Notes under the pieces: model-generated
What the model was told of the DNA's origin: nothing
Database searches by the model: none
Seen by the model: only the letters and a program-made list of their open reading frames with translations
In this document: positions 2,457 through 4,046 of the stretch, one piece after another
Numbering within the stretch: position 1 is the first letter of the stretch
How the letters are laid out: every line of letters begins with the position of its first letter
Program-made: the position numbers and the translations under genes
Source: a virus
Taxonomy: Duplodnaviria; Heunggongvirae; Uroviricota; Caudoviricetes
Length of the DNA stretch: 8,894 nucleotides
Direction: 5' to 3' (one strand)
IMG/VR virus record: IMGVR_UViG_2700989172_000005

Positions 2457-4046
2457 AACGAACGCCTGTCCTGATTGATGTGAACGGCGTTCCGCTTCGT
2501 GAGAGTCTCAGCTACAACGGAGGCGGCGCAGGATTTGGCGGGCAAATGGCAGAGTGGTTACCACCGGCGCAGAGTGCCGATGCGGCCCTGTTGCCTGCAT
2601 TGCGTCTGGGGAATGCCCGGGCAGATGATCTGGTGCGCAATAACGGTATCGCGGCTAATGCGGTGGCCCTGCATAAGGATCATATCGTCGGGCACATGTT
2701 TCTTATCAGCTACCGTCTGAACTGGCGTTGGCTGGGGATGCGGGAGACCACGGCAAAAAGTTTTGTCGGGGAGGTGGAAGCAGCCTGGTCGGAATACGCA
2801 GAAGGAATGTTTGGCGAGATCGACGTGGAAGGGAAACGCACGTTTACGGAATTTATCCGTGAAGGGGTGGGCGTGCATGCCTTTAACGGCGAAATCTTTG
2901 TGCAGCCGGTCTGGGATACGGAAACCACGCAGTTATTCCGTACGCGTTTTAAAGCCGTGAGTCCGAAACGGGTGGACACGCCAGGACACGGTATGGGGAA
3001 CCACTTTCTGCGGGCCGGGGTTGAGGTCGATCGGTATGGGCGGGCGATTGCGTACCATATCTGTGAGGATGATTTTCCGTTCTCTGGTGCCGGACGCTGG
3101 GAGCGGATCCCGCGTGAGCTTCCCACCGGGCGTCCGGCCATGCTGCATATTTTTGAGCCGGTGGAGGACGGGCAGACCCGTGGGGCTAATCAGTTTTACA
3201 GCGTAATGGAGCGGATGAAGATGCTGGACTCCCTGCAGGCCACGCAGCTTCAGTCGGCCATTGTGAAGGCGATGTATGCAGCCACAATCGAAAGTGAACT
3301 TGATACCGAAAAGGCATTTGAATATATCGCGGGGGCACCGCAAGGTCAGCAGGATAATCCGCTTATTAATATTCTGGAGAAGTTCACCCGCTGGTATGAC
3401 ACGAATAACGTGACGCTGGGCGGTGTTAAAATTCCGCACCTTTTTTCCTGGCGATGCGCTGAACCTGCAGACAGCGCAGGATTCAGACAATGGATTTTCG
3501 GCGCTTGAACAGGCGCTGCTGCGGTATATTGCAGCCGGTCTTGGCGTTTCCTACGAACAGTTGTCCCGTGATTACTCGAAGGTCAGTTACTCAAGTGCCC
3601 GCGCCTCCGCCAATGAGTCGTGGCGCTATTTTATGGGGCGGCGAAAATTTATTGCGGCCCGGCTGGCCACGCAGATGTTTTCCTGCTGGCTGGAAGAGGC
3701 GCTTCTTCGGGGGATTATTCGTCCGCCACGGGCGCGTTTTGATTTTTACCAGGCGCGTTCAGCCTGGTCACGGGCAGAGTGGATTAGCTCCGGAAGAATG
3801 GCCATTGACGGGCTCAAGGAGGTCCAGGAATCGGTGATGCGCATTGAGGCCGGACTGAGCACGTATGAGAAAGAACTGGCACTGATGGGCGAAGATTATC
3901 AGGACATTTTCCGCCAGCAGGTCAGGGAATCCGCAGAGCGCGAAAAAGCCGGACTCTCACGTCCGGTGTGGATAGCCCAGGCGTATCAGCAGCAGATAGC
4001 GGAGAGTCGCAGGCCGGAAGAGGAGACAACATCACGTGAGACGTAA
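2453..4046 (+). CDS. B: Portal protein (lambda gpB-like), interrupted as read by a +1 frameshift in a T6 run at 3441-3446 (ORF fragments 2453..3508 and 3423..4046)
   Basis: The N-terminal fragment (GGGAGFGG, ARADDLVRNNG, FEPVEDGQTRGANQFYSVMERMKMLDSLQATQLQSAIVKAMYAATIESELDT) and the C-terminal fragment (LNLQTAQDSDNGFSALEQALLRYIAAGLGVSYEQLSR, GRMAIDGLKEVQESVMRIEAGLSTYEKE) both match lambda gpB from recall. Removing one T from the run restores ...PHLFPGDALNLQ... against lambda ...PHLMPGDSLNLQ..., giving a product of about 530 aa. Confidence 0.85.

Follow-up and report, generated by a model that had tools for sequence, protein, structure and literature searches.

The portal gene in this stretch of phage DNA is read in two different frames, which raises the question of whether the break is a sequencing error, a site of frameshifting during translation or a genuine inactivating mutation. 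We analyzed the whole stretch of 8,894 nucleotides (here referred to as the window) and are confident that it contains the head genes of a defective Shigella flexneri prophage of the lambda/phage-21 type, in which the insertion of a single T, probably by slippage, has made the portal gene a pseudogene as part of ordinary decay. The coordinates of all features are collected in Table 1.

Table 1. Features of the window, with coordinates, strand and the basis of each assignment. The coordinates of genes D to U were mapped from locus L004 onto the window, in which the corresponding ORFs are present.
Feature	Position	Strand	Basis
IS600 (IS3-family) right end	1..62	+	Identity to an annotated IS600 copy; homology break
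Terminase small subunit (Nu1) remnant	62..370	+	Partial match to PF07471
Terminase large subunit, gpA-like, 636 aa	342..2252	+	PF05876, PF20454
Near-perfect inverted repeat at the terminase frameshift lesion	2171..2211	.	Arms 2171-2188/2194-2211, 94% complementary
gpW-like head-tail joining protein, intact, 67 aa	2253..2456	+	PF02831 on the identical locus L004; E. coli annotation of the same length
Portal pseudogene, upstream ORF, 351 aa	2453..3508	+	Residues 1-331 authentic, last 20 out of frame
T6 homopolymer, site of the one-T insertion	3441..3446	+	Run length compared with aligned alleles
Portal pseudogene, downstream part	3447..4046	+	+1 frame; corresponds to ancestral residues 332-530
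S49 protease/scaffold gene (lambda C/Nu3 type)	4036..5612	+	501 aa with PF01343 in identical complete-genome loci
D-like decoration protein, intact	5649..5996	+	Gene calls and Pfam matches of the 100%-identical L004
Major capsid protein E, intact	6054..7082	+	Gene calls and Pfam matches of the 100%-identical L004
FI, intact	7134..7520	+	Gene calls and Pfam matches of the 100%-identical L004
FII, intact	7532..7909	+	Gene calls and Pfam matches of the 100%-identical L004
Z, intact	7896..8480	+	Gene calls and Pfam matches of the 100%-identical L004
U, intact	8477..8878	+	Gene calls and Pfam matches of the 100%-identical L004

The portal frame breaks at a run of six T's

The sequence was read directly around the break. 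The T6 homopolymer lies in the context CAC C TTTTTT CC TGG, and the letters at positions 3430 to 3449 are AATTCCGCAC CTTTTTTCCT. The upstream ORF opens at the ATG at 2453, and its product ends in ...GGVKIPHLFSWRCAEPADSAGFRQWIFGA*, with the stop codon at 3508. In the +1 frame, the mechanically defined ORF extends from 3423 to 4046 and its translation begins VLKFRTFFPGDALNLQTAQDSDNG...; this frame carries ...FFPGDALNLQTAQDSDNGFSALEQ... past the T6 run. An uninterrupted frame over the wing, stem, clip and crown is absent: the frame changes within the run and then meets the stop. Deletion of one T from the run yields a continuous portal of 530 aa, in which the junction peptide is IPHLFPGDALNLQTAQDSDNGFSALEQALLR; the out-of-frame tail peptide is IPHLFSWR. 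A preliminary description of this DNA had placed the frame change at these six T's and the stop at 3508, and both are present in the sequence. It had further claimed that removal of one T restores a portal resembling lambda gpB, which the following comparisons confirm.

The match to the portal family PF05136 (Phage_portal_2) is split at the run, the upstream ORF covering profile positions 2 to 288 and the downstream ORF positions 288 to 354, while the repaired protein covers positions 2 to 354 in a single stretch. The scores of the two ORFs (228.7 and 80.4 bits) and of the repaired protein (326.5 bits) are all above the curated cutoff of 32.9 bits. Like lambda gpB (PDB 8k38), to which 523 of its residues (5 to 527) align with an E value of 4.4e-213, the repaired protein reads through the junction, with KIPHLFPGDALNLQ opposite lambda KVPHLMPGDSLNLQ. 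The portal DNA is 93.5% identical to that of phage 21 gene product gp4. However, the window portal is broken after codon 331, unlike that of phage 21, which is an uninterrupted 1593-nt gene with TTC at the equivalent site (a T4 run). The gene is flanked by those for gpW and the C protease/scaffold protein, the start and stop codons of adjacent genes overlapping, and the window has the gene order of lambda and phage 21 (Nu1, A, W, B, C, D, E, FI, FII, Z, U). Because the frame is broken inside the clip, we classify the window portal as a pseudogene of the PF05136 family and not as a functional member.

The T6 allele recurs across S. flexneri genomes

The exact 351-aa product, out-of-frame tail included, occurs in 2587 blocks of a public gene index and on at least 1000 contigs (NCBI, ENA, UniRef and Logan). 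It has been deposited under the name "head-tail preconnector gp5" [S. flexneri] as AAN42336.1 (S. flexneri 2a 301), AAP16213.1 (which we take to be from S. flexneri strain 2457T), ABF04804.1 (presumably strain 8401) and ADA73063.1 (presumably strain 2002017), and the downstream ORF product has been deposited as AAN42337.2 and AAP16214.1. The run was T6 in 14 of the 14 related loci examined. These comprise ten loci encoding the product (L004 to L013), CP182556.1, CP178302.1 (which is also L009) and two IMG/VR contigs. The ten product-encoding loci are mostly complete chromosomes from different projects, the rest being large contigs, and include AE014073.1, CP012735.1, CP007037.1, CP026765.1, CP026792.1, LR213452.1 and CP178302.1. 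Two of them, L004 and L006, are 100% identical to the window on both sides of its N run.

The exact 42-nt T6 pattern was found in two species-representative genomes, CP182556.1 (S. flexneri SFBU1023) and CP178302.1 (E. coli ECMA0423). The latter is a 4.44-Mb chromosome in which the portal with T6, the IS600 junction and the terminase lesion are all of the S. flexneri type; despite its E. coli label, the genome probably comes from a Shigella or EIEC-like strain. When 5,426 complete E. coli genomes were searched with a 91-nt query centered on the run, none matched the T6 form exactly, and the five best matches differed solely by the missing T; this megablast search captures close alleles only, and the frequency of slippage in more divergent E. 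coli portals lies outside its reach.

The T6 variant is therefore not confined to one assembly or technology, and the extra T is evidently a real, inherited S. flexneri mutation and not an assembly error. The preliminary description had offered two explanations, a homopolymer error in a draft assembly and a genuine inactivating mutation; with T6 on at least 1000 contigs, only the second has stood.

The length of the run is not strictly fixed, because 19 contigs (NCBI and Logan), one of them of 4.66 Mb, carry an uninterrupted portal with S445. This exact repaired 530-aa protein is labelled S. flexneri in the databases (QBQ21922.1/WP_134799197.1) and represents a small minority relative to the at least 1000 contigs with T6. 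The minority T5 allele may reflect reversion from T6 to T5, a retained ancestor, recombination or a miscalled homopolymer.

Intact relatives carry shorter T runs

The portal gene is 99.8 to 99.9% identical at the nucleotide level in prophages of E. coli CFSAN029787, FDAARGOS_943, RMDEC364, VL46 and VL40. Unlike the window, all five of these prophages have an intact portal gene with a T5 run, annotated as a single 530-aa "phage portal protein." The full-length portal matches listed for E. coli genomes and phages all span 1593 nt, compared to 1594 nt in the query. Relative to CFSAN029787, the window portal gene has the extra T and one substitution (position 3786) only, and the repaired window protein differs from the intact E. 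coli protein WP_046880246.1 at one residue (S445G). E. coli FDAARGOS_943 (NZ_CP065615.1) contains two near-identical intact copies of the head module (L002 and L003), each with ISEc60 inserted at the same place after the FII-like gene.

Comparison of the T run in orthologous prophages, which the preliminary description had recommended, showed that the aligned run has six T's in the S. flexneri loci, is one T shorter (T5) in the closest E. coli prophages and two T's shorter (T4) in phage 21 and E. coli CFT073. The last two read CAC CTT TTC CCT, and the closest E. coli prophages read CAC CTT TTT CCT, a synonymous change that extends the run to T5. Replication slippage, the standard origin of single-base indels in homopolymers, is the most economical mechanism and would have added one T to the T5 run to give T6. 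The T6 run is found across S. flexneri genomes and close relatives outside the species are intact, with the caveat that a minority T5 allele exists within S. flexneri. The mutation is inherited: among the sampled S. flexneri that carry this prophage, practically all have it.

The packaging genes upstream of the portal are also damaged

The left end of the window is formed by an insertion sequence. Positions 1 to 64 are identical to the end of an element annotated as "IS3-like element IS600 family transposase" in E. coli CFSAN004176, and the junction between IS600 and phage DNA falls at about 61 to 64, with 3 nt ambiguous. Homology to E. coli prophages begins at position 62, which corresponds to nucleotide ~202 of the 510-nt intact Nu1 gene; IS600 has removed the first ~67 codons, the N-terminal half, and the remnant covers only positions 85 to 163 of the 164-position PF07471 profile. 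Many IS copies are present in the late region upstream in every locus. In one of the two prophage forms described below (form A), the upstream part of Nu1 is deleted as well, and cos is presumably deleted in these loci.

The gene for the terminase large subunit carries a second lesion. At positions 2179 to 2183, AGTTG takes the place of the TGGCGG of E. coli, equivalent to three substitutions and a 1-nt deletion, and this replacement shifts the last ~24 to 30 codons out of frame. The product is 636 aa and ends in ...QLHPARMQLHNRPLKNWQRSCPEE*, versus 642 aa ending in ...LAASRKDATAQPTLEELAAKLSGGVNGYSR in E. coli and in form-B S. flexneri. The exact 636-aa product was found in 2068 index blocks. 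According to work from the Feiss laboratory, the C-terminal ~32 residues of lambda gpA are reportedly its portal-binding part. The lesion coincides with an inverted repeat of 18-nt arms and a 5-nt loop, which was an imperfect palindrome before AGTTG replaced TGGCGG; no such inverted repeat was found at this position in the E. coli reference L003. The 5-for-6-nt replacement looks like the signature of template switching at a quasi-palindrome, by which the substitutions and the deletion could have arisen in a single event. Two more single-base indels in the terminase gene, a gained A and a lost T at the equivalents of window positions 940 and 1067 (127 nt apart), are present in L009, L014 and L015 (CP178302.1 and CP182556.1) and split the gene into ORFs of 201 and 397 aa. 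Apart from the portal, the same prophage thus has independent inactivating lesions at the IS600/Nu1 junction, in the terminase C terminus and, in some strains, at these additional terminase indels.

The claim of the preliminary description that the other head genes are intact holds for W, D, E, FI, FII, Z and U, which are equal in length to their intact E. coli counterparts, and fails for Nu1, truncated by IS600, and for the terminase, with its C-terminal frameshift. In the protease/scaffold gene, the sole interruption in the window is the N gap that the preliminary description had reported, a run of 128 N at positions 5427 to 5554. Compared with complete genomes, this run replaces just 57 nt of the gene. 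It also alters the apparent frame and length, such that the window ORF spans 4036 to 5589 and the true end maps to 5612. The nearby N gap is no evidence that the homopolymer indel is an artifact. The window is the left-arm head module of a phage 21-type lambdoid prophage, its genes being identified from the Pfam families of the identical locus and from the annotation of close E. coli prophages.

Within gene U, positions 8593 to 8830 form a dense patch of ~22 substitutions relative to the otherwise identical AE014073.1 locus (L011), and the same patch sets the form-B loci apart from the window. The clustering suggests recombination or gene conversion among lambdoid prophages. Locus L004 additionally contains, at its positions 2321 to 3742 between the Q antiterminator and holin genes, an ORF for a group II intron-type reverse transcriptase (RVT_1 and GIIM) that is absent from the otherwise identical L006, L008 and L011.

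Two forms of the prophage share the portal lesion

The loci compared fall into two forms. Form A consists of the window, L004, L006, L008, L009 and L011 (AE014073.1). Its terminase carries the lesion, its portal has S445, and a deletion has brought IS600 directly next to the end of the lysis genes. Form B (L005, L007, L010, L012 and L013) has an intact 642-aa terminase and G445 in the portal. Directly before its Nu1 remnant lies an IS cluster of several kilobases, which is preceded in turn by additional small ORFs. Form B has the E. coli state at positions 505, 1248, 1347, 1788, 2179 to 2182, 3786 and 4420, which identifies form A as the derived one. Since the T6 run and the IS600/Nu1 junction are common to both forms, they either predate the terminase lesion or have spread by recombination. 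Each of the two complete chromosomes with the 42-nt T6 pattern has a single copy of it, and the look-up of the form-A terminase returned no form-B records, which suggests that the two forms may be alleles or alternative states rather than two loci per genome.

Predicted consequence for the portal protein

Translation of the T6 allele would leave the portal frame after F331, add 20 unrelated residues and end at 3508. F331, the last correct residue, aligns with about residue 334 of lambda gpB. In the cryo-EM structure of gpB, the clip comprises residues 280 to 342 and the second stem segment residues 343 to 367, followed by a second wing part, which includes the tunnel loop (368 to 452), and the crown (453 to 511) (PMC10721106). 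With the break inside the clip, the truncated product would lack the rest of that domain as well as the second stem helix, the wing half with the tunnel loop and the crown. Based on fold homology, it should form no functional dodecameric DNA channel. The portal lesion would then be one part of the decay of the packaging module, beside IS600 in Nu1 and the frameshifted terminase C terminus. For the S. flexneri M90T genome, 769 pseudogenes have been counted, of which 406 are frameshifted, along with about 400 IS copies (PMC7132871), and with so many pseudogenes and IS copies in that genome, the lesions of this prophage fit the ordinary decay of S. flexneri.

Alternative readings of the T6 run

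Could the broken gene still yield a portal? A ribosome might shift to the +1 frame on CUU UUU U, with the P-site tRNA-Phe re-pairing from UUU to the overlapping UUU, and so produce some full-length portal, whether the shift is programmed or adventitious. The U6 run does allow a Phe tRNA to re-pair in the +1 frame, and with 12 portal subunits sufficing per particle, even a low yield could matter. However, the 91 nt around the run are those of the intact E. coli T5 alleles except for the extra T, and flanks identical to those of intact alleles imply that no dedicated shift signal has evolved. More distant relatives have TTC and a T4 run, and the phage and E. coli homologues are single ORFs of 1593 nt; the shift site and the two-frame arrangement are not conserved among homologues. 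The next zero-frame codon is UCC, which is neither a stop nor a rare codon. No Shine-Dalgarno-like AGGAGG was found within several hundred nucleotides upstream of the run, and the RNA downstream of the run folds no better than shuffled sequences (z = -0.99). Finally, Nu1 and the terminase tail are broken too, and with the packaging module broken elsewhere, a rescued portal would have nothing to serve. We consider recoding very improbable. A programmed frameshift in particular, for which a conserved shift site, a Shine-Dalgarno-like stimulator and downstream structure are all missing, was rejected, and the preliminary description was justified in rating it as the less likely explanation, given flanks identical to T5 alleles and no stimulator.

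The 351-aa fragment might instead have acquired a new role, such as that of a dominant-negative subunit poisoning the portal rings of superinfecting lambdoid phages. It keeps the first stem segment and the greater part of both wing and clip, and it is unchanged across thousands of genomes. That uniformity is explained by clonal descent over a short time, without selection, and the untranslated downstream part is equally preserved, with one substitution relative to E. coli. Because the untranslated part is as well preserved as the translated part, recent neutral decay is favored over selection, and we regard co-option as extremely doubtful. Taking both proposals together, there is a very slight chance that slippage on U6 yields some full-length portal or that an expressed 351-aa fragment disturbs the assembly of incoming lambdoid portal rings; if either were true, the dead gene would be a weak barrier to superinfection or a source of portal for helper-dependent particles.

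The N run in the window, the nature of the lesion as a single base inside a homopolymer and the uninterrupted protein encoded on 19 S. flexneri contigs might speak for a sequencing or assembly error in a draft genome with a true run of T5 and an intact portal, but this reading has almost no probability and was rejected, because the identical T6 recurs across many independent assemblies, both in the exact-protein look-up (at least 1000 contigs from NCBI, ENA and Logan) and in the comparison of all 14 loci, complete chromosomes from different projects among them. An inherited single-T insertion in a decaying prophage remains our interpretation of the portal break.

Comparison with known systems

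The feature itself is already known, in that the split pair of coding sequences has stood in public annotation for years and is one among hundreds of S. flexneri frameshift pseudogenes. The "head-tail preconnector gp5" pair of S. flexneri 2a 301 (AAN42336.1 and AAN42337.2) and the 2457T pair (AAP16213.1 and AAP16214.1) are identical to the products of the two window ORFs; there is no difference, and they are the same feature. A literature search turned up no description of this particular portal lesion, although Shigella pseudogenes are treated in general terms. In annotation, the two ORFs are best joined into a single frameshifted portal pseudogene belonging to a defective prophage, and the run should be left as it is rather than "corrected" as if it were a sequencing error. 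As stable lineage markers of S. flexneri, the T6 allele, the IS600/Nu1 junction and the terminase lesion could be used in typing or to date the decay of the prophage.

The arrangement resembles the programmed +1 frameshifting of prfB (RF2) in that a +1 shift would be needed to join two overlapping frames. In prfB, the conserved shift site includes an in-frame stop and is preceded by a Shine-Dalgarno stimulator. In contrast, the portal gene of the window has none of these elements, and its homologues need no shift. A closer parallel in kind is the stf gene of laboratory lambda, in which, as in the window, a structural gene of lambdoid type is knocked out by a single-base frameshift that is passed on by descent (PMC10721106). 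Unlike the stf mutation, with which the phage stays viable, the lesion in the window removes an essential head component and is accompanied by the IS600 insertion and the terminase lesion.
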